A DNA stretch of 64,000 bases from positions 32,001 to 96,000 of IMG/VR virus record IMGVR_UViG_3300028837_000518; one strand, given 5' to 3'. The translations under genes and the position numbers were made by a program. This DNA comes from a virus. Of this stretch, positions 1,983 through 64,000 are shown in pieces (position 1 is the first letter of the stretch; each line of letters starts with the position of its first letter). The notes under the pieces were generated by a model, which was not told the DNA's origin, made no database searches, and saw only the letters and a program-made list of their open reading frames with translations.

Positions 1983-3185
1983 TTGTACTTTGTACGATCA
2001 CTCGAAGAAGATCGGGAGATTTGGGGTGATGATAGTGCAGCTACAGATGAGGCTACATGGATAAACCTCATCACGCAGCAACTCAACAGCCGGCGAGAAG
2101 CAATTTTATCAGATGAGCGCAATCATCGCGCTAGACTAGAGCAGTTGATGGTCACTACGCGCGACCTGGTAAATAATCTCTCCAATAACCCGGCACTCTA
2201 TGTAACCGCTGCCGGCATAAGTGATCTGGCCGAGAGTGAAGTAGCACTGCTAAGACGAGTTGGTATCAACCACTTGCTTGACATCACTCTGAGTGGTTCA
2301 CACATGATTATGCGTCCGCTAGAGAATATGGGGTGGCAGACTACGAACTTTCGCAATAGAATGCGAGCGCATAGTGCATCAGTCGACCTATTTACTGGTC
2401 GGGTCTACATTGGTGACACACCCCTTGTGCATTGCAATGAGGAGCTACAAAACGTCGTACTTGCGCTGATTCTTTCAGGGCACTTGGCCATTGTACCTTA
2501 TCTGGTAATGGGAATCATAGAGTTAGCAGCCGCACAGTGCCTTGAGGAACCAATAGCTGAAGATATTGGTGATAGCTCCGGATATACCGAAGATGTTGTC
2601 GCTGGTATTCATAGTAGCGACTTCACGCACAGAGATGAAAGTATGTCCAGGTTTCATGAGGTTATCAGTACGACAACCACGACGCAACGTCGGTTACGCG
2701 AGAGTGCAATTGCGCTGGCTAATTTAGAGGCGCAGGCCAATAACGGTGAAGGACTCAGAGAAGAGCTTCAGAGACTGATTAGATTACCTAGTATACACAA
2801 GATATTGGTACGACCACATCCACGGCGAAACACTCCACGCGTGGTGGTTTATACCGAACCCCTCACTATCGCTGAGTGGGAAATTGGCCGGTACGTTATT
2901 GATATAGAGATGGGTGACTGGATACTGATACGCAACCTAGACTATGCGTTTCAGCAACAGTTTCCGCATCCACACGTACACGAGAATGGTAAACCGTGCT
3001 TTGGCCGACTAAGTGAGAGAATGCGTGAGGCGATGGCGCAAGGTAATATGCGCTCACTGATAATTGGTTCAGTGCGTTTGGTAGAATCTTACAATGCCAG
3101 AGACGCGTACTGCCCCATGCGACGCATTGCAGAACTCACGGAAGAAGACATCGGGCGAATCTACTGGACAAGGAGTTACTACTAA
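1983..3185 (+). CDS. prokaryotic E2/UBC-like conjugating enzyme with N-terminal helical/coiled-coil region
   Basis: C-terminal HPHVHENGKPCFG matches the E2 HP(N/H)(I/V)xxxGxxC active-site signature; adjacent to JAB, E1 and Ubl genes. Confidence 0.7.
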   Translation: MYFVRSLEEDREIWGDDSAATDEATWINLITQQLNSRREAILSDERNHRARLEQLMVTTRDLVNNLSNNPALYVTAAGISDLAESEVALLRRVGINHLLDITLSGSHMIMRPLENMGWQTTNFRNRMRAHSASVDLFTGRVYIGDTPLVHCNEELQNVVLALILSGHLAIVPYLVMGIIELAAAQCLEEPIAEDIGDSSGYTEDVVAGIHSSDFTHRDESMSRFHEVISTTTTTQRRLRESAIALANLEAQANNGEGLREELQRLIRLPSIHKILVRPHPRRNTPRVVVYTEPLTIAEWEIGRYVIDIEMGDWILIRNLDYAFQQQFPHPHVHENGKPCFGRLSERMREAMAQGNMRSLIIGSVRLVESYNARDAYCPMRRIAELTEEDIGRIYWTRSYY

Positions 3186-3186
3186 G

Positions 3187-3993
3187 ATGACGAAGGAGAA
3201 GTTTACCCCGGTACCCACCAGCAATACTAGCGTGCCAACAGTCAAGCACAAGAAGGTAGTGGTCGCCAAGAAGAAAATTACAGTTACCCAAGATAGTCGG
3301 CCAACGAAGTTTGAGAACCCTATGCTGGCAATGCTACCAGACTTCAAAACGAGACTTGATGCAATAGTTGACCAAGCACCAGTTGAAGTAAGTGGGTTTG
3401 GCAGCATGACTATTCATGAGAGCCGAGCAAGTAATGGTTCGGCACAGCATCTCATTGTGCCGCGCGAGTTGTTTGTTCTCGATCAAACTACAACATCTGG
3501 TTCAGCTGACATAGAACAAGATGCTGTCGGTAACTTCTTCGAGGACTGGGTAACCGAGGGTCGAGATGTAAAAGAGTTACGTGTGTGGTGGCACAGTCAT
3601 GGTAGAGGGGCAAAGCCAGTACCTTCGGCCACAGACTGGTCTACAATTACTCGCTCCTTTGGTCGTGTGCCCTGGTATATTATGCTTATTACCAACAAGG
3701 ACCGTCAATATACAGCATACCTCGTCTTGACTAAGCCGTTTCGGGTAAAGGTTGAGATTGAAGTTGGTTTGTTTGTTGACGCGGCAATACGCGACTGGGC
3801 AAAAAACGAAGTAGAAAAGCATGTTACAACCACAGCTGGATACAAGTATCCAACGGGCAGAAGGTGGGATGGTCGCTTGGCACGTTTTGTTGACGTTGAA
3901 GAGCCTGGTGCGAAACAGGCACAAAGTAAACAGGGAGTTTTGCTACCCAAGGGATCACCTGCGGATAACGAGTGGGAGCGGTGGTCATGGTAG
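3187..3993 (+). CDS. JAB/MPN+ (JAMM) metalloprotease, deubiquitinase-like
   Basis: upstream E (VEVSG) plus WWHSHGRGAKPVPSATD = HxH...SxxD. Confidence 0.85.
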   Translation: MTKEKFTPVPTSNTSVPTVKHKKVVVAKKKITVTQDSRPTKFENPMLAMLPDFKTRLDAIVDQAPVEVSGFGSMTIHESRASNGSAQHLIVPRELFVLDQTTTSGSADIEQDAVGNFFEDWVTEGRDVKELRVWWHSHGRGAKPVPSATDWSTITRSFGRVPWYIMLITNKDRQYTAYLVLTKPFRVKVEIEVGLFVDAAIRDWAKNEVEKHVTTTAGYKYPTGRRWDGRLARFVDVEEPGAKQAQSKQGVLLPKGSPADNEWERWSW

Positions 3994-4658
3994 ATGACAC
4001 CCGACAGTTAGATATTCTTTCGCCCAAGTTTCTACAGGATCGCCATGTTGACCTAATTGGTTGCGGTAGTGTTGGTAGTATGACTGCCTTTGTCCTCTCA
4101 AAAATGGTAGCAGGCGAGGAGGACTTCTCGGTTAGGCTGATTGATGGTGATATAGTAGGGGATGTCAACATTCGACCAAGCCTGTATACACCTGTTGATA
4201 TAGGTATATGTAAGGTCCTTGCGTTACAGCGCCTACTCCTCTACCTATCCAATCTTTCTACCACAGTCTGTAGTGAGTTTGTTGGTCCCGACAACTACCC
4301 TAGTCTCAAAGACATTGTAGTTGTTTCAGTAGATACTATGGCTGTGCGGAAAGATATATGGGAAAACTGTATCGGGCTATACAACCCTCACTGGCTGATA
4401 GATGCCAGAATGGGTGCCGAGATTTGCACTATCGTTACCGTTGATCTTAGTAGTGATGAGCAACGCGAGCGGTACGACGACGAGTTGTTTACTGACGATG
4501 AGGCTAGGCAGTTACCCTGCACTGCACGAGCAATTGCCTACAACACCGCATACATCGCGGCACTCATCGTTAGAACTATAAAGCGTATTCTAGTCGGAGA
4601 GGAGGTGGACTATCAAGTAGATTCAAGTCTAAAGAATCTTGTTATGTTACTTACTTAG
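3987..4658 (+). CDS. ThiF/E1-like ubiquitin-activating (adenylating) enzyme
   Basis: IGCGSVGS nucleotide loop, IDGDIV, VDTMAVR, IDARMG, candidate catalytic Cys in LPCTAR. Confidence 0.88.
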   Translation: MVDDTRQLDILSPKFLQDRHVDLIGCGSVGSMTAFVLSKMVAGEEDFSVRLIDGDIVGDVNIRPSLYTPVDIGICKVLALQRLLLYLSNLSTTVCSEFVGPDNYPSLKDIVVVSVDTMAVRKDIWENCIGLYNPHWLIDARMGAEICTIVTVDLSSDEQRERYDDELFTDDEARQLPCTARAIAYNTAYIAALIVRTIKRILVGEEVDYQVDSSLKNLVMLLT

Positions 4659-4706
4659 CAAATCGTTGATTGTAAAGCTATTCCTAACCTACAAAAGGAG
4701 AGTACA

Positions 4707-4976
4707 GTGTCAGCTGACAAGAGAACTATCCAGCTCAACCCGGACGATGAAGTTGAAGTTCTTGTTCCTTCGGGAGCCAAGGTCACCATCATCACCATGG
4801 ACGACACCCGCGAAGTCGACCCCGGCATCACCGTCGCCGAGGCACTCAACGCGGCCGGTATCGAAGTGCAGTCCGATGAGGTCGTGCGAGTCAACAAGCA
4901 GGCGTGCAGTGACGCGGATCTCACCCTCGACGCCGGTGATGTTCTGTCCGTGGTCCCTCGCGTTCGCGCGGGGTAG
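4707..4976 (+). CDS. ubiquitin-like beta-grasp protein (ThiS/MoaD/Ubl fold)
   Basis: TVAEALNAAGI..VRVN..LDAGDVLSVVPRVRAG-stop; strong AAGGAG RBS; ends in Gly. Confidence 0.8.
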   Translation: MSADKRTIQLNPDDEVEVLVPSGAKVTIITMDDTREVDPGITVAEALNAAGIEVQSDEVVRVNKQACSDADLTLDAGDVLSVVPRVRAG

Positions 4977-5020
4977 TCCTGTAGTAGCTTAGTCTTGGCT
5001 AAGTTAGAGCAGTAGGTCGC

Positions 5021-5054
5021 GGGGTGGTGCAGCCAAGGTTCTGCATCACCCCTT
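5021..5054 (+). terminator. GC-rich hairpin closing the Ubl operon
   Basis: GGGGTGGTGCAG/CTGCATCACCCC 12-bp stem; U-tail is short. Confidence 0.5.
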
Positions 5055-6222: not shown

Positions 6223-6768
6223 ATGGACCCCTACCGCCAACCGAACCGCAAAACTCTGATTGGATTCGGTTACTGCGGTATCAGTGCGTCTTTGACTTCT
6301 GTAGAGCGTATTGTTTACATGACTGGTTGGCCGAGGAACTACGAAGTAACACGGAGTAATAACATGACAGAGTTCTCTATGTCATTCACTAAGCACTGTG
6401 ATTATTGCGGTGAAGAGATAGTTAGAGAAGTAGCTCAACCAACCAATCCTGTAAGCTGGTTTCAAGTACGACTACCTATTCAGGTATCAATGCCTGACCG
6501 CTTACATAACTTCTGTAGAGTCTCGTGTTTACTTCAGTGGGTTGCACAACAGCTAAGTAATGAGAATAGGAAAGCAAGCAGTAGTGAAGATAAGCAGTTG
6601 AATAACCTAGCAATAGACTTGCTTGAGATGGCAAAGTATGCAGCACACCATGCAATCCATAACGATATAGGTGATGGATACTGTCTACTTAGTTATTGCC
6701 CACTTCACTACCCGGCACAGCGGCGTTACCGTGGCTCACTTCTACTGGAGGGCAGTAAAGATGGCTAA
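6223..6768 (+). CDS. hypothetical protein (CxxC..FCxxxC, TRASH-like zinc motif)
   Basis: CDYCG, FCRVSC. Confidence 0.5.
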   Translation: MDPYRQPNRKTLIGFGYCGISASLTSVERIVYMTGWPRNYEVTRSNNMTEFSMSFTKHCDYCGEEIVREVAQPTNPVSWFQVRLPIQVSMPDRLHNFCRVSCLLQWVAQQLSNENRKASSSEDKQLNNLAIDLLEMAKYAAHHAIHNDIGDGYCLLSYCPLHYPAQRRYRGSLLLEGSKDG

Positions 6769-7450
6769 CTACTACACTGAGTTCTCACAGATCATCGAGT
6801 GTCAAAGTGACGAGCAGCGAGCGTTTCTTCGAGATGCCTTCGATCAGTTAAGTCAGAATGGCAGCGATACTAGCGTTGCTTATGCAGTAGACAGAGACGA
6901 AGGTGGGCACCCTAAAGATATTTGGGTTTACTCAGATACCGTTGACTATAGTAGTATAGAATCGGTAGTTGATGTGGTTTGTAGGTTTCAGAGGAAGTTT
7001 GCCATCCCAACACCTTGGCGACTAACTTGGGCTTTTACGTGCGAGAAACCGCGCGTCGGTGCGTTTAGTGGTGGTGGTGTGCTTTGCTTGAAAGGTGAGA
7101 GCTACTGGGTAAATGCCGATACTTGGCTCAATAACAAGTTGAAAGAACTTGTAAGAGCCTCTATGGAATACCGCACACTTTCTGTAGAATCGAAGAGAAT
7201 GCTCGTCAATCTTTGCCCGGAAGATAGTATAGTTGAGTTGCGATTAGGTACTGTGGAAGAAGGTTCTTGGTGTTACCAAGCAGGTTCACAAGGTGTAATA
7301 TGTCCTCATAGACATACAGTACGTTACCTTATAGAACACCAACTTCTCCAACAGGTTTTCCGCTGTGTAGGAATGCCCATTGGGTATACACTGACACCCT
7401 TAGGTAGATTGTTAGCCAATTGCCTACCGTCACCACACTATCGAGGATGA
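6761..7450 (+). CDS. hypothetical phage protein
   Basis: GGAGG RBS, MANYYTEFS start. Confidence 0.6.
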   Translation: MANYYTEFSQIIECQSDEQRAFLRDAFDQLSQNGSDTSVAYAVDRDEGGHPKDIWVYSDTVDYSSIESVVDVVCRFQRKFAIPTPWRLTWAFTCEKPRVGAFSGGGVLCLKGESYWVNADTWLNNKLKELVRASMEYRTLSVESKRMLVNLCPEDSIVELRLGTVEEGSWCYQAGSQGVICPHRHTVRYLIEHQLLQQVFRCVGMPIGYTLTPLGRLLANCLPSPHYRG

Positions 7451-7701
7451 GGAGATTCCTAATGTCTCTAAGATTTCTCGCAAGTTTATGTTCACAACGA
7501 GTGTACTGTGAGTATGACGGTCGCATTATAGGTAAGGTTTCACCGGGGCATATCATGCCTAACTCACAGAACCTTTCAGTAGTAGCAATAGTCTACCAAG
7601 ATGCCTTCAGAACACGTTACTTCTGTCACCCTGGATGTCTCAAGAAGTGGCTGGCAGACTCGAAGGTTGGTGTATACAGAACTCCCAGTGATGAGGGGTG
7701 A
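7447..7701 (+). CDS. hypothetical protein
   Basis: packed ORF. Confidence 0.45.
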   Translation: MRRFLMSLRFLASLCSQRVYCEYDGRIIGKVSPGHIMPNSQNLSVVAIVYQDAFRTRYFCHPGCLKKWLADSKVGVYRTPSDEG

Positions 7702-7953: not shown

Positions 7954-8544
7954 GTGGATGGGCACTTGGAAATTCGTGAAGCAGATGCACTTGCGGGTAG
8001 TTGTAACTTCTGCTCTAGGATGGCAGCTAGAGTAGTTTCAGTGATGGGGAGACATTCGGGACCCAATATGCTAGTTCGGTTCTGCCAGAAGTGCTTGGAT
8101 GAACTGGTTGCTTATAGTAATACTCCTGTACCAGTAAGTCCTATTTTCCAGAGGATCAGTTCAAAGAGGGTGGCTCAGTTGAAAGCCGCAGCTGAGGAGA
8201 TTCACGAACACTTCTTAGCCTTGAAAGAAGAGGAGGCAAGTATGGCAAGGAAAGAGTTGAAAGGGTACTTGGTCAAGGTTAGACTCAATGTTATGGTGTT
8301 TACCAATGACGAGAAAGGGGCTGCAAGAATAGCCCTAACCAAGTTCAAAGAACAGATGACCTACAACGGGTGGGATAACCACCCACTAGCTACGAGTGCT
8401 ATCCCCGGCACATTCTACGAGGATGGCGAGGACACCTTTGTTGACAGTGTTGAGGAACTGGTTATATCATCAGAGTGGCAAGGTATCAATGGTGTTTGGG
8501 CTAAACGAGAAGAAGAGGAACAAGGAGGAAGTCGTGAGGAGTAA
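7954..8544 (+). CDS. hypothetical protein (possible internal second start at MARKELK)
   Basis: RBS; internal GAGGAGG before ATG. Confidence 0.55.
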   Translation: MDGHLEIREADALAGSCNFCSRMAARVVSVMGRHSGPNMLVRFCQKCLDELVAYSNTPVPVSPIFQRISSKRVAQLKAAAEEIHEHFLALKEEEASMARKELKGYLVKVRLNVMVFTNDEKGAARIALTKFKEQMTYNGWDNHPLATSAIPGTFYEDGEDTFVDSVEELVISSEWQGINGVWAKREEEEQGGSREE

Positions 8545-13149: not shown

Positions 13150-13151
13150 CA

Positions 13152-13214
13152 CGTCTGGGTCGCCGATTGCTGGTTACCACTTAAATGTTCCAGTAATCAC
13201 GAACTTATCCGGCG
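13152..13214 (+). ncRNA. Y-RNA-like element Y1
   Basis: outer CGUCUGGGU/AUCCGGCG, inner GAUUGCUGG/CCAGUAAUC, GGUUA and CUUAUC motifs. Confidence 0.7.
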
Positions 13215-13226
13215 CTTACTTTAAAC

Positions 13227-13320
13227 ACCACACCGAGCTAGTATTTCTAAAGAAACCGTGCGATCTTTGATTCTAAGATCAAAGATTCTACAACTTCTAA
13301 GTGACAGTCTTGGTGTTGGT
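13227..13320 (+). ncRNA. structured RNA lacking the Y motif, between Y1 and Y2
   Basis: ACCACACCGAG/CUUGGUGUUGGU closing stem; perfect AUCUUUGAU/AUCAAAGAU hairpin. Confidence 0.4.
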
Positions 13321-13322
13321 AC

Positions 13323-13423
13323 GGGTTGGGTCGAAGTATGTCGGTTATCATACATAGTAATAGCATGGGTAAGAGTACGGCTCTACCATGCCCAAACTCG
13401 ACATACATTCCCTTATCCAATCC
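13323..13423 (+). ncRNA. Y-RNA-like element Y2
   Basis: GGGUUGGGU/AUCCAAUCC, GUAUGUCG/CGACAUAC, GGUCGAAG, GGUUAUC, CUUAUC; internal GCAUGG/CCAUGC arm. Confidence 0.8.
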
Positions 13424-13440
13424 ATAATACTTAAATTGTT

Positions 13441-13499
13441 GGCTAGGTCGAAGTATGCTGGTTATCCTCTATGATCCCGGCTACAATCCTTATCTAGCC
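13441..13499 (+). ncRNA. Y-RNA-like element Y3 (minimal)
   Basis: GGCUAGGU/AUCUAGCC, GUAuGCUGG/CCGGCUAC, GGUCGAAG, GGUUAUC. Confidence 0.8.
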
Positions 13500-13502
13500 T
13501 TT

Positions 13503-13575
13503 AGGTAAATAGCTCAGTTGGTAGAGCACTTCTTTTACAAAGAAGAGATCGCAGGTTCGAGTCCTGCTTTGCCTA
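13503..13575 (+). tRNA. tRNA-Val(TAC)
   Basis: full cloverleaf, anticodon loop TT-TAC-AA, T arm GCAGG TTCGAGT CCTGC; no encoded CCA. Confidence 0.92.
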
Positions 13576-13586
13576 CTAAAACTTAA

Positions 13587-13693
13587 TAGATTAGGTCGAA
13601 GAGTATCGGTTATCAAGGCAAGCCGAGAGGTTGGTCTGGTGAGCCAGACTTAACATCGGTTATGAAAACGATCTCACAAACTTATCTAATCTA
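13587..13693 (+). ncRNA. Y-RNA-like element Y4
   Basis: UAGAUUAGGU/AUCUAAUCUA, GAGuAUCG/CGAUCUC, GGUUAUC; long internal arm GGUCUGG/CCAGACU. Confidence 0.8.
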
Positions 13694-13696
13694 CAT

Positions 13697-13768
13697 GGGG
13701 GCGTAGCTTAACGGGAAAGCACCTCTTTTGCAAGGAGGGTACTGGAGGTTCAATTCCTCCCGTCTCCA
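13697..13768 (+). tRNA. tRNA-Ala(TGC)
   Basis: cloverleaf, G3:U70 identity pair, anticodon TGC. Confidence 0.92.
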
Positions 13769-13771
13769 CCT

Positions 13772-13834
13772 CTTGGGTCGAATGCATTGGGTTATTCAAG
13801 GTGAAAACTTCCCAACGCAGTTAACTTATCCAAG
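13772..13834 (+). ncRNA. Y-RNA-like element Y5
   Basis: CUUGGGU/AUCCAAG, UGCaUUGGG/CCCAAcGCA, GGUCGAA, GGUUAU, CUUAUC. Confidence 0.8.
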
Positions 13835-13843
13835 TAATAATAT

Positions 13844-13916
13844 GCGGGAGTAGCTCAGTTGGTAGAGCATCGCCTTGCCAGGGCGAGGGTCACGAGTTCG
13901 AGTCTCGTTTTCCGCT
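13844..13916 (+). tRNA. tRNA-Gly(GCC)
   Basis: cloverleaf, anticodon GCC, U73 discriminator. Confidence 0.92.
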
Positions 13917-13925
13917 TATGTTGTT

Positions 13926-14004
13926 AAGCCGGGTCGAGTTCAGTGGGTTATTGTGTATAATAATCCTTGTGTGTGTTTTCCCACTGGAAAAGTTAACCTG
14001 GCTT
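13926..14004 (+). ncRNA. Y-RNA-like element Y6
   Basis: AAGCCGGGU/ACCUGGCUU, UUCAGUGGG/CCCACUGGA, GGUCGAG, GGGUUAUUG; followed by a U-run. Confidence 0.78.
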
Positions 14005-14051
14005 TTATCTCTCTGGGACGCTTTTCCATCCACCACTACTAGGAGGTTATA

Positions 14052-15752
14052 ATGAGCAATTACGGCCAACACTTCTCTACACAGCAAACCGTCCAGACCG
14101 AGCCCATCCCAGGAAAAGATATGGGAGAAAACTTGGCTGGTGGTTATGCATTCAAGATTGATAAGTGGGCAAGACTTCAGCGTTTTCTTATCCTCGGCGC
14201 GGAAGGCACCTACTATGCTAGCGGTCAAGCAATGACCATTGATAATGCTAACGTAGTAGTGGATTGTATTCGGGAAGATGGCCGGCGAGTGGTAGATAGT
14301 ATTGTTACTACCTCACAAGAGGGTCGTGCGCCCAAGAATGACTCAGCACTATTTGCCCTTCTCATGTGTATGACACCAGACTTTGCCAATCTTGCAACTC
14401 GCCAAGCAGCATTTGCTGCTCTTCCTGCAGTTGCACGAATTGGTACGCACCTATTTAAGTTCTGCTCTGAGGTTGACTCAATGCGGGGTTGGGGACGTGG
14501 GCTACGACGCGCACTCTCTAGGTGGTACAACTCTAAAGCTCCTGCTCGCCTTGCATACCAAGTTGTAAAGTATCAGCAGCGGCATGGCTGGACCCACAGA
14601 GATGTATTGCGCAAGGCTCACCCAGTCCCCTTATCGGATGCGCACAAGATTATCTATCACTACATAACTCAAAAGGAGCTACCATGTAGTCTCGCGCAGA
14701 CAGAGGGTGGTGTGGATATGTTGTATGCCTTCGAGTCTATCAAACGGGCCGAGAGTGTTAATCAGGCCACACAACTAATCCGTGAATTCAGACTTCCTCG
14801 CGAGGCAGTGCCAACTCGATTCTTGAATGATAGTGCTATTTGGCAAGCACTACTAGAATCTATGCCTATGACCGCCATGATTCGCAACCTTGCCAAGATG
14901 ACCAGTATTGGTCTACTTGCTCCCTTGTCGTTCGCAGCTAACTTTGTAGTAAAGCAATTAGGTAATGCAGATTATCTGAGACGCGCACGCGTTCACCCAT
15001 TCTCTGTATTTCTTGCGTTGCGAACCTACGCGATGGGTTGCGGTATTCGTGGTAAGCTTCGGTGGGAACCAGTACCTGCCATAGTAGATGCGCTTGACAA
15101 GGCTTTTTACTTGTGTTTTGATAATGTTGAGCCAACTGGAAAGCGTATAGTAATCGGCGTTGATGTCTCGGGTAGCATGAGTGCGCCGATACTCGCTGAT
15201 CCTAATACACAATTCATGGTACCGGGGCCACCATCAGTCCTGGAGGCCGCTGCTGCAATTGCGTTAGTTACTAACGCTGTGGAACCCAATAGTACTATAG
15301 TAGCATTCTCGCATGATATAGTACCAATCACTATTACACCGCGCCAGCGGATTGATAACCTTTGCAACGAGCTACGCGGCCTACCAATGGGCAATACAGA
15401 CTGTGCTCTACCCATGCTTTGGGCGCTAGGTTATGCGCCCGATGTACGTGGTGGTATTCACAGATGGTTCCGTCACCCCTGCGATTATAAGAAAGTTAGG
15501 GACAACGTTATCGAGGCTGATGTTTTCATAGTAATTACCGACAACGAGACTTGGTTTGGCAAGATACACCCTGTGCAGGCACTAAACAAGTATCGAAAGC
15601 AAACAGGTATTGACGCCAAGCTAGTTGTTCTCGCTATGACCTCTACCGGATTTTCTATAGCTGACCCCAATGATTCTGGAATGCTTGATATTTGTGGTAT
15701 GGATAGCGCTGTTCCCACACTTATCTCTGACTTTATAAGTGGCAGAGTTTAG
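14052..15752 (+). CDS. rsr: Ro60/Rsr TROVE-domain RNA-binding protein with vWA domain
   Basis: LQRFLILG..GTYY, GWGRGLRRA, KYQQRHGWTHRDVLRKAHP, MTAMIRNL, MIDAS DVSGSM and TDNET. Confidence 0.95.
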   Translation: MSNYGQHFSTQQTVQTEPIPGKDMGENLAGGYAFKIDKWARLQRFLILGAEGTYYASGQAMTIDNANVVVDCIREDGRRVVDSIVTTSQEGRAPKNDSALFALLMCMTPDFANLATRQAAFAALPAVARIGTHLFKFCSEVDSMRGWGRGLRRALSRWYNSKAPARLAYQVVKYQQRHGWTHRDVLRKAHPVPLSDAHKIIYHYITQKELPCSLAQTEGGVDMLYAFESIKRAESVNQATQLIREFRLPREAVPTRFLNDSAIWQALLESMPMTAMIRNLAKMTSIGLLAPLSFAANFVVKQLGNADYLRRARVHPFSVFLALRTYAMGCGIRGKLRWEPVPAIVDALDKAFYLCFDNVEPTGKRIVIGVDVSGSMSAPILADPNTQFMVPGPPSVLEAAAAIALVTNAVEPNSTIVAFSHDIVPITITPRQRIDNLCNELRGLPMGNTDCALPMLWALGYAPDVRGGIHRWFRHPCDYKKVRDNVIEADVFIVITDNETWFGKIHPVQALNKYRKQTGIDAKLVVLAMTSTGFSIADPNDSGMLDICGMDSAVPTLISDFISGRV

Positions 15753-62678: not shown

Positions 62679-63051
62679 GCCCGATAACTATAATGAACGC
62701 CTTCACTACCTTGTGGCTAAGTATGTAATGGGATGGGAACTAAAACATATACAAGAAGGGTGTCCTAATTACACGGATTATGGAATGTGGTGGCACTACC
62801 TTACATTTCCGTATAAACATAAGAGTTGGTGGAGACCCACGCATGAAGATGGCGACACGGAGGAAGTACTAAAAAGACTACACAAGCTAGGTTATGACGT
62901 ACACATAGTTCGATTTGCTGAATCACATTACTGGGAGTGTATTATACACATACCGGCAGGACTTAGTTTTACTGCAAGACATAAAATAAGAGGACATGCT
63001 ATCTGTCTTGCAGCATGTTTGGCAGTGGGGTTAAAGGTAACTACATGTTAG
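62665..63051 (+). CDS. ABA-sandwich-like phage protein
   Basis: LVAKYVMGW..AICLAACLAVG. Confidence 0.55.
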   Translation: MTLDRPDNYNERLHYLVAKYVMGWELKHIQEGCPNYTDYGMWWHYLTFPYKHKSWWRPTHEDGDTEEVLKRLHKLGYDVHIVRFAESHYWECIIHIPAGLSFTARHKIRGHAICLAACLAVGLKVTTC

Positions 63052-64000
63052 ACCACCTCTCGTACTCTAGTATAGTAAGATTTATTATGTGTCCTAGGTC
63101 ATGGGAATACCACTATATTCACCGTATCGCACGCCCAGTTTCTAGCGCACTCTTTGTGGGAAGTTGTACGCACGGTGCCCTAGAGCATAACTATAAACAG
63201 AAAGTGTTAACGCATGAGGACTTGCCAGTAGATGAAGTTCTACAGTGGTTCTCAGATCGGTGGGACACTTTGGACCCATCAGTGGGGCGTCCCGCAAGCA
63301 GTACCGGCGCTGAATCATTGGGTATAGACTGGAAAAACAAAGACCCAGGCCTTGAGAAAGACATGGGTGTAGCCATGGTTGGTAAGTATCAGAAAACAAT
63401 AGCCAAGACCGTACAGCCTGTAGTTGCTGAACTTGGCTGGAGTCGGAAAGTAGATGATATGAAAATCATCGGTCGCGTAGACCTTATTGATGATAACGCT
63501 ATCGTTACAGACTTTAAAACAGCAAGCCGGCGACCGCGAAGAGGTAGCTGGCATACAGACTTACAACCAACATTCTATGCACTTGGTATGAAAAGCGCAA
63601 TAGTTTTTGAGTATCATTACATGCTTAAGTTAAAATCGCCAGCTGTAGAAAAGTACCGCACGCAACGAACGAAATCTGACATAGAATGGATAGTGAAAGT
63701 ACTTATACCGCCAATCGTAAAAAGCATTCGCCGAGGTATATTCTTCCCTAACACGCAAACATGGAAGTGTTTCTCGCTAGATACTGAAGTACTAACTAAT
63801 AATGGATGGAAGGGGTATAATAGCTTATCTTATCAGGATGATGTTTTAACCCTAAATCAGCAGACGGGTTTTCTAGAGTGGCAAAAACCCTATGCCATCT
63901 TTACACGGAAGTATAATCAACCTAAGCGAATAGTATCATTCGATGGTAGGACAATTAGCTTTAGTGTTACACCAGATCACCTAATGCTGAGTCGTTCCTG
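63045..64000 (+). CDS. PD-(D/E)XK RecB/Cas4-like exonuclease, partial, with intein (not in the ORF track)
   Basis: HLSYSSI..CPRSW..GSCTH..GRVDLID..DFKT..LQPTFY; open to the window end. Confidence 0.85.
   Translation, partial: MLDHLSYSSIVRFIMCPRSWEYHYIHRIARPVSSALFVGSCTHGALEHNYKQKVLTHEDLPVDEVLQWFSDRWDTLDPSVGRPASSTGAESLGIDWKNKDPGLEKDMGVAMVGKYQKTIAKTVQPVVAELGWSRKVDDMKIIGRVDLIDDNAIVTDFKTASRRPRRGSWHTDLQPTFYALGMKSAIVFEYHYMLKLKSPAVEKYRTQRTKSDIEWIVKVLIPPIVKSIRRGIFFPNTQTWKCFSLDTEVLTNNGWKGYNSLSYQDDVLTLNQQTGFLEWQKPYAIFTRKYNQPKRIVSFDGRTISFSVTPDHLMLSRS
63768..64000 (+). mobile_element. intein N-terminus (truncated by the window end)
   Basis: WK|CFSLDTEVLTNNGW..VTPDH. Confidence 0.85.

Follow-up and report, generated by a model that had tools for sequence, protein, structure and literature searches.

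A predicted ubiquitin-like conjugation cassette (E2-JAB-E1-Ubl) encoded in a complete genome of a lytic-type phage

What use would a bacteriophage have for a complete set of enzymes that tag other proteins with a ubiquitin-like protein (Ubl)? The question is raised by four consecutive genes in a 64,000-nucleotide stretch of viral DNA (here called the window: bases 32,001–96,000 of IMG/VR record IMGVR_UViG_3300028837_000518, with all feature coordinates given in window numbering), which encode, in this order, a protein resembling E2 conjugating enzymes, a metallopeptidase of the JAB/JAMM type (JAB), a minimal activating enzyme (E1) of the ThiF type and a small beta-grasp Ubl. Up to now, Ubl conjugation in prokaryotes has been characterized as an anti-phage weapon of bacteria, as in Bil and type II CBASS (an anti-phage signaling system based on cyclic oligonucleotides), or has been left without an assigned role (Bub), whereas here the complete kit is found in a complete phage genome. 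An earlier note, made from the letters of the sequence alone, had proposed a virus-encoded E2-JAB-E1-Ubl conjugation operon, and this core reading is supported by the folds, families, catalytic residues and viral record described below. We consider it probable that the cassette is a self-contained protein-conjugation kit of a lytic-type phage, operating without a ubiquitin ligase (E3) and perhaps used to the benefit of the phage.

All four genes that the earlier note had placed side by side in this order are real, and only their starts were refined from the sequence. The features of the cassette are as follows.

1983..3185, plus strand, E2-like protein of 400 residues; TTG start with a GGAGG Shine-Dalgarno site 5' of it
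2967..2999, plus strand, E2 active-site stretch HPHVHENGKPC, residues 329–339; codon of Cys339 at 2997–2999
3187..3993, plus strand, JAB/JAMM (MPN+) metallopeptidase of 268 residues; ATG start
3987..4658, plus strand, minimal ThiF-type E1 of 223 residues; its ATG overlaps the JAB stop codon (ATGGTAG)
4707..4976, plus strand, ThiS/SAMP2-like beta-grasp Ubl of 89 residues; GTG start with AAGGAG 5' of it; ends ...RVRAG, codon of Gly89 at 4971–4973
4985..5006 and 5021..5052, plus strand, two stem-loops 3' of the Ubl stop codon, the second with a 12-bp stem

The genes are tightly packed or overlapping, and each has its own Shine-Dalgarno site. At 3094 begins a longer open reading frame (ORF) for the JAB; it overlaps the E2 gene, and 3094 is unlikely to be the true start.

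The source record, a 109,319-bp IMG/VR virus genome, is flanked by direct terminal repeats and is rated by CheckV as 100% complete. A terminase-like ORF belongs to a block on the minus strand whose end lies near 23.6 kb of the genome. No integrase was found in the whole genome, from which the phage looks to be of a lytic type. With a complete genome, terminal repeats, a terminase-like gene and no integrase, a host chromosomal island, the alternative that the earlier note had set against its own claim of a virus-encoded system, is therefore ruled out. Nearly all genes of the window are on the plus strand; the window has five tRNAs, the only hits in an Rfam scan of the window, and genes with PHROG matches to a clamp loader, an RNA ligase, NrdD and a helicase. 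The cassette sits about 10 kb into the non-structural plus-strand arm, amid small ORFs and about 10 kb from the minus-strand structural block. Its supposed location in an early-gene region stands as far as the non-structural arm and the small ORFs go, early timing being plausible from this position.

The E2-like protein consists of an unconserved and mostly helical part (residues 1 to ~215), a long helix (~216–266) and a UBC-fold domain (~270–400). Among 1.84 billion representatives, a family profile collected 81 relatives (E ≤ 1e-3); their alignments are confined to residues 215–390, and they share the pattern V.T.P...IG.F.I.I...NL...HPHV...G.PC.GN...SYN..D.Y. In alignments of 80 and 22 sequences, Cys339 is invariant and the HPH residues are invariant or nearly so. 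When supplied with the family alignment, AlphaFold (AF2) modeled residues 215–400 with a predicted local distance difference test score (pLDDT) of 89 as a long helix, a beta-meander, the loop carrying HPH and Cys, and further helices; a single-sequence prediction of the whole protein (pLDDT 37) was unusable, and the evidence on fold is limited to residues 215–400. Searched against the PDB with Foldseek, the model had only ubiquitin-conjugating enzymes among its top 50 matches (probability 0.91–1.0), and the top 20 of an independent all-against-all structural search with VIA-align were likewise all E2s (Z 7.6–6.1, 113–140 residues aligned), with RWD and UEV domains ranked below them. The 22-sequence profile matches Ubc13 end to end over residues 10–140 (E 0.007) and places HPH on HPN and Cys339 on the catalytic Cys87, so that HPHV..G.PC is aligned with HPNV..G.IC, the third motif residue being His and not Asn. 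None of these scores is overwhelming alone; since they agree, in a uniform list of hits and in the motif, we regard the predicted UBC fold and its E2-type active site as established. The HPHVxxxGxPC motif pointed out by the earlier note is thus present as HPHVHENGKPC, with its Cys at the E2 catalytic position, and the UBC fold on which that note had made its reading of ORF 1983–3185 depend is given by the AF2 model, Foldseek, VIA-align and the Ubc13 profile alike.

The E2-like protein had no match at E ≤ 1 to Pfam (including UQ_con and Prok-E2_A to Prok-E2_E), PADLOC, PHROGs or NCBIfam, the E2 models of Pfam were matched by none of 80 family members, and a word-index search for homologues retrieved the protein itself only. 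The region N-terminal to the conserved core is not only unconserved but also varies in length across the family, which speaks for the earlier note's idea that it could be a target-specificity element replacing an E3; a search of the ESM Atlas with it gave a best score of 0.75 and no lead. In four family members (P0122, P0170, P0184 and P0197), the UBC domain is followed by a Cys-rich C-terminal extension in which C..C and DC..C patterns recur; it may be a fused zinc-finger or E3-like module.

The second gene product has the HSH motif at residues 136–138, followed by Ser147 and Asp150 with a spacer one residue longer than in the canonical HxH-x7-S-xx-D. Its Pfam Prok-JAB match (E 1.2e-3, 19.2 bits) is below the gathering score of 25, and Glu67, His136, His138, Ser147 and Asp150 are invariant in 36 of 36 cassette JABs, which confirms the JAMM protease (HSH..SxxD) proposed earlier.

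The E1 matches Pfam ThiF at E 4.7e-10 (39.5 bits, above the cut-off of 28.1) and belongs to a family of 121 ThiF-like homologues of ~220 residues. The earlier identification of a GxGxxG motif and a candidate catalytic cysteine proved right: GCGSVG occupies residues 25–30, and Cys178 lies in an invariant LPCT motif and is predicted from its position to be the catalytic residue. R6, G25, G27, G30, D53, N61, K76, D116, R121 and C178 are invariant in the family, and the protein retains the adenylation-site residues of ThiF, MoeB and E1 enzymes (GxGxxG, an acidic ribose residue, a Lys, the Asp of DxxxxR and an N-terminal Arg). Against solved structures, the family profile matches ThiF at 7.6e-18, with Uba1 and Uba5 (about 1e-17), UBA6, MccB and MoeB within 1e-18 to 1e-14, and the matches are limited to the nucleotide-binding half (profile positions 1–125). 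In the single domain of 223 residues there is no inactive or second adenylation domain, no inserted CYS domain, no CxxC zinc site and no rhodanese domain, so that it differs from the canonical architecture of the Uba1/BilD type. To our knowledge, it is the smallest E1 that occurs alongside an E2.

The fourth protein, which the earlier note had described as a beta-grasp protein ending in Gly, matches Pfam ThiS with 25.7 bits (cut-off 22.5) and has the tail ...RVRAG, and is assigned to the ThiS/MoaD/SAMP type of beta-grasp proteins with a predicted functional C-terminal Gly. A profile of 16 cassette Ubls, aligned up to the C-terminal GG, matches PF1061 (2.4e-9), SAMP2 (8e-9, second best) and ThiS (3e-8) among solved structures; a protein-conjugating modifier, SAMP2, is thus among the closest solved relatives of the Ubl. 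The family matches of the four proteins go well past what chance would give, the sub-threshold Prok-JAB score being backed by the invariant JAMM residues.

The gene order is conserved in other phages and in bacteria, as the synteny search proposed in the earlier note brought out. An E1 alignment search recovered 242 IMG/VR contigs, of which 80 were fetched, their ORFs called and searched with profiles built here. About 18 of these 80 contigs (group A; 14–193 kb) have the E2-JAB-E1 order with a Ubl of 65–138 residues nearby, and in 81 of 85 loci across the fetched viral contigs the gene directly upstream of the E1 is a JAB. The flanks of the group A loci share nothing else with this phage, and since flanks are unrelated among cassette phages, the cassette therefore moves as a unit. 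A genome collection yielded 40 further loci, all in metagenome-assembled genomes (MAGs) and assigned to Anaerolineae, Methylomirabilota, Planctomycetota, the candidate phyla radiation (CPR) and others. Most of these have the order E2-[JAB]-E1-Ubl, and some copies without a JAB keep E2-E1-Ubl. In the three MAG loci inspected, on contigs of 38–482 kb, the cassette stands between housekeeping genes (among them GlnE, HrcA, SurA and UDP-glucose dehydrogenase), and it is therefore chromosomal in bacteria as well. The cassette is common to phages and bacteria and not virus-specific.

The closest relatives of the phage E1, JAB and E2 (42%, 33% and 31% identity) are found in an Anaerolineae MAG whose Ubl has the tail ...VVARVVAG. 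In a quick E1 tree, the E1 of the window groups with two Anaerolineae sequences (Shimodaira-Hasegawa-like approximate likelihood ratio test, SH-aLRT, 98; long branches), and viral and MAG sequences interleave. The closest bacterial cassette, in an Anaerolineae MAG (L085, 2865–8226), is preceded by a second ThiF-family protein of 381 residues with weak PADLOC BilD and Cap2 matches, and an AAA ATPase with weak IetA and TRIP13 matches lies 5' of the cassette on the same strand. Among 50,697 GenBank phages, blastn with the operon and tblastn with the E2 domain and with the JAB were all empty, and only the E1 found distant relatives. No paper on a phage-encoded cassette of this kind was found in a literature search whose coverage was incomplete and which is no proof of absence.

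The remaining viral loci (group B, L021–L084; more than 50, mostly marine) encode a protein of 490–740 residues, then a JAB, then an E1, ahead of replication genes. This triad is located within the replication module and adjoins uracil-DNA glycosylase (UDG), a PD-(D/E)XK exonuclease and primase, and in a profile-profile comparison (hhalign) its upstream protein matched the E2 active-site core with a probability of 85% over 55 columns. The crAss-like phages Kehishuvirus and Dulem virus 41 (L002, L004) have a hypothetical protein, a JAB and a ThiF beside primase, UDG and exonuclease, and in BFVD, a structural search with the E2 model has a crAss-like protein of 373 residues among its best hits. 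In Xanthomonas phage PhiXhv-15 (L003, 1283–4836) and Erwinia phage Ep032, a protein of 892 residues is encoded directly upstream of a ThiF-like E1 and has a weak E2-domain match at residues 607–711; near the ThiF of these cultured jumbo phages, no JAB or Ubl was recognized. Xanthomonas phages PhiXhv-12 and PhiXhv-16 likewise have the putative E2-like protein beside a ThiF-like E1. We regard the ties of group B, the crAss-like phages and the jumbo phages to the E2 cassette as leads and not as established.

Judged from sequence motifs and structural models, the cassette probably conjugates the Ubl to proteins. We infer the following course, in which each chemical step, the thioester on the E1, the choice of proteins over other targets and the biological role are all put conditionally. 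The E1, probably a homodimer like ThiF and MoeB, would bind the 89-residue Ubl and adenylate its C-terminal Gly89. The activated Ubl would then be passed to Cys339 of the E2, probably through a thioester on Cys178 of the E1, and the E2 would hand it on to target-protein lysines; the helical N-terminal half of the E2, variable across the family, would most likely stand in for an E3 by selecting or scaffolding the target. The JAMM peptidase would strip the tag again and, in relatives whose Ubl has 1–6 residues after Gly-Gly, would trim the precursor too; in this phage it would be mainly a deconjugase, because the phage Ubl already ends in Gly. As to role, we favor a modification of proteins, whether of the host or of the phage, that benefits the phage inside the infected cell, with expression from the non-structural arm, though we are much less sure of this than of conjugation.

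Several observations weigh against this scheme. Other E1s form the thioester and dock their E2 by means of a CYS domain, a zinc site and a ubiquitin-fold domain (UFD), none of which is present in the cassette E1; its Cys178 is a presumed crossover-loop cysteine, named as such from sequence position. For the E2, an E of 0.007 makes the sequence match to the PDB a marginal one, and no structural Z-score reaches 8. The Ubl terminates in Ala-Gly and not in Gly-Gly, and its gene, with a GC content of 0.607 and a third-codon-position GC content (GC3) of 0.71 against 0.45–0.49 and 0.44–0.47 for the E2, JAB, E1 and flanking genes, is foreign in composition; it has no close homologue among 5.8 billion proteins, a word-index search having retrieved itself only, and may be a recent replacement from a GC-rich source. 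In favor of the scheme are the tails of cassette Ubls across loci, which end in (K/R/E)GG plus 0–6 residues. In loci with a JAB, 26 tails have an extension and eight end exactly at Gly, and in those without a JAB four have an extension and 11 end exactly at Gly, but the JAB-less set comes mostly from one clade (NC10) and the counts are not independent; the association fits a peptidase that both processes and deconjugates. On the opposing side, finally, the bacterial chromosomal copies make a defense-type role about as arguable as a pro-viral one.

A more specific form of the pro-viral role, which we hold only tentatively, is that the cassette and the triads of group B and the crAss-like phages tag host or replisome proteins during infection, in an offensive or a replication-related use by phages. 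The main rival on role keeps the chemistry and directs it against competing elements: as mobile, Bil-like cargo, the cassette would tag and disable proteins of other phages or mobile elements during co-infection. It has its grounds in the anti-phage function of the characterized bacterial E1/E2/JAB/Ubl systems, Bil and type II CBASS (PMC11601596), in the same cassette standing alone as an operon in bacterial chromosomes, in the interleaving of phage and bacterial E1s in the tree and in a moron-like distribution, the cassette being the sole thing common to otherwise unrelated phages. However, no long-term protection of the host is to be had from a lytic-looking phage without an integrase, the bacterial copies checked have housekeeping genes or weak matches around them and no recognizable defense islands, and the related JAB-E1 pair is fixed in the replication module of marine and crAss-like phages. 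We judge this use unlikely, yet it is the strongest of the competing explanations.

Counter-defense is a far less probable role. Here, the JAB would strip conjugates made by Bil- or CBASS-type systems of the host, while the E1, E2 and Ubl would act as decoys or compete for the host machinery. The JAB is indeed the most widely retained partner of the E1 in viral contigs (the 81 of 85 loci above), and the phage Ubl needs no processing. On the other hand, all four catalytic centers are conserved and not that of the JAB alone, JAB-less bacterial copies retain E2-E1-Ubl, and no cassette protein matches BilA or BilB in PADLOC, models that are probably in the library, the JAB match being generic only.

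A chemistry without protein conjugation, in which the E1 would turn the Ubl into a thiocarboxylate for thiolation of cofactors, tRNA or nucleotides as in ThiS/ThiF, MoaD/MoeB or TtuB/TtuC, is highly improbable, although ThiS, MoaD, TtuB and ThiF are the best sequence matches of the Ubl and E1 and the E1 is as minimal as ThiF and MoeB. We reject it because a UBC-fold E2 with an invariant Cys, which would be useless to sulfur carriers, is always linked to the E1 and Ubl, because sulfur-transfer partners are missing and because the C-terminal extensions of JAB-linked Ubls fit a modifier. The earlier note had seen no sulfur-pathway partner genes in the window, and this holds genome-wide for ThiG, MoaE, a TtuA-type PP-loop protein and rhodanese, none of which was found in the whole 109 kb; nor does the E1 have a rhodanese domain. 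The reading as a tail-assembly module (lambda TAPI/K-like) is dismissed, as the cassette lies in the non-structural plus-strand arm ~10 kb from the structural block and the TAPI match has an E of only 0.019.

If the preferred pro-viral role is true, the expected direction of the arms race would be reversed, and the cassette would be the first pro-viral Ubl system of prokaryotic viruses, built from a minimal E1 and an HPH-type E2 whose variable N-terminus would take over from an E3. Viral contigs with relatives number in the hundreds, and putative distant versions are present in crAss-like gut phages and in cultured Xanthomonas and Erwinia jumbo phages, the latter being a possible laboratory handle. 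Curated models for this E2 family are lacking, although its eukaryote-like HPx-Cys active site is better preserved than that of the Bil E2s. The cassette bears on how a Ubl is transferred from E1 to E2 without a CYS domain or UFD, and on the evolution of the ubiquitin system.

Several features adjoin the cassette or lie farther along the window. The operon had been described as closed by a hairpin, and stable hairpins, two of them, are present: taken together, 4985–5052 folds with a minimum free energy of -41.9 kcal/mol (z = -3.57), and none of 200 shuffled sequences folds as well. Their function as a terminator is unsupported: neither hairpin was called in a terminator scan and there is no U-tract downstream, which leaves the 12-bp hairpin without support as an intrinsic terminator, and the stem-loops may instead mark the operon end or stabilize the RNA. 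On the 5' side, an ORF of 68 residues (1773–1979) with two predicted hydrophobic helices overlaps the preceding ORF; it stops 3 nucleotides short of the E2 start codon, and co-transcription with the cassette is possible. Paired CxxC motifs resembling zinc ribbons occur in several small ORFs on either side of the cassette (3–263, 1295–1804, 6223–6768, 7420–7701 and 7954–8544), which have no Pfam match and are perhaps paralogues within one family of small, early zinc-binding proteins. A Ro60-like gene (13150–15752; PHROG RNA-binding protein, 1e-71) adjoins three tRNAs 9 kb from the cassette. At 63015–63998, the window encodes a PD-(D/E)XK nuclease (Pfam 2.3e-19), homologues of which (24–26% identity) lie immediately 3' of the cassette E1 in three MAG contigs (L109, L110 and L112), a neighborhood that links the module elsewhere to recombination and replication genes.

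How does the cassette compare with the systems already described? The earlier note had likened it to Bil and to Cap2/Cap3 of CBASS, and the likeness to Bil holds for the kit of E1, E2, JAB and Ubl; the cassette is, however, a separate family without a curated model, with the order E2-[JAB]-E1-Ubl, and is not Bil, CBASS or Bub. Bil (type I/II; BilABCD) is a bacterial ISG15-like anti-phage system that corresponds to operon classes 6d/6c of Iyer et al. 2006 (PMC1779556; Chambers et al., 10.1101/2023.09.26.559546), and all characterized bacterial E1/E2/JAB/Ubl systems, Bil and type II CBASS, are anti-phage (PMC11601596). As in Bil, the Ubl, the E2, the JAB deubiquitinase (DUB) and the E1 each have a gene of their own, there is no E3, the Ubl has a C-terminal Gly, which in relatives would be exposed by the JAB, and a thioester cascade through the E2 cysteine is expected. 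The E1 of Bil, of ~450–500 residues, combines a zinc site and a mobile CYS domain with two adenylation domains, one inactive and one active, whereas the cassette E1 is a single domain of 223 residues. In the E2 of Bil, the histidine of HPN is missing and a His that follows the Cys is used; in the cassette E2, HPH precedes the Cys and the N-terminal extension is long. The gene order also differs (Ubl-E2-DUB-E1 in Bil and E2-JAB-E1-Ubl in the cassette), and the cassette, unlike Bil, is encoded by a virus. In PADLOC, which holds a BilD model and so probably BilA and BilB, the cassette E2 and Ubl had no match and the JAB a generic one only.

With type II CBASS, the cassette shares a JAB partner, and the N-terminal Rossmann region of its E1 matches the PADLOC "E1-E2" models at 3e-7 over ~70 residues of the nucleotide-binding fold. 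Cap2 of CBASS is an E2-E1 fusion, whereas here E2 and E1 are separate genes and a dedicated Ubl takes the place of the CD-NTase C-terminus; no SMODS/CD-NTase was found in the phage genome. Bub (6E/DUF6527; Ye et al., PMC11601596) is, like the cassette, a diverged prokaryotic operon of E1, E2, Ubl and peptidase, and the BubCD E1 is a weak PDB match of the cassette E1 profile (1.6e-8). In contrast to Bub, which forms oxyesters on Tyr or Ser and has no catalytic cysteines (PMC11601596), Cys339 of the E2 and Cys178 of the E1 are invariant in the cassette, in which there is neither a Ubl-E2 nor a JAB-E1 fusion, and the phage genome has no DUF6527/BubE protease.

Archaeal SAMP/UbaA/HvJAMM1 and Thermus TtuB/TtuC resemble the cassette in their minimal ThiF/MoeB-like E1, a beta-grasp modifier of the ThiS/MoaD type and a JAMM deconjugase. 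They have no E2 and double as sulfur carriers, whereas the cassette has an obligate UBC-fold E2 neighbor and no sulfur-pathway partner in the genome. Unlike the UBC-type E2s of eukaryotes and giant viruses (Ubc13, UbcH10 and UbcH7), the cassette E2 has HPH instead of HPN, ~16–21% identity, a helical N-terminal extension of ~250 residues, no match to the Pfam UQ_con model and a partner E1 of ThiF size. It is nevertheless these enzymes that are its best structural and sequence matches, and it shares with them the UBC fold, the HPx motif, the catalytic Cys and the downstream "N-x-D-D/Y" helix region.

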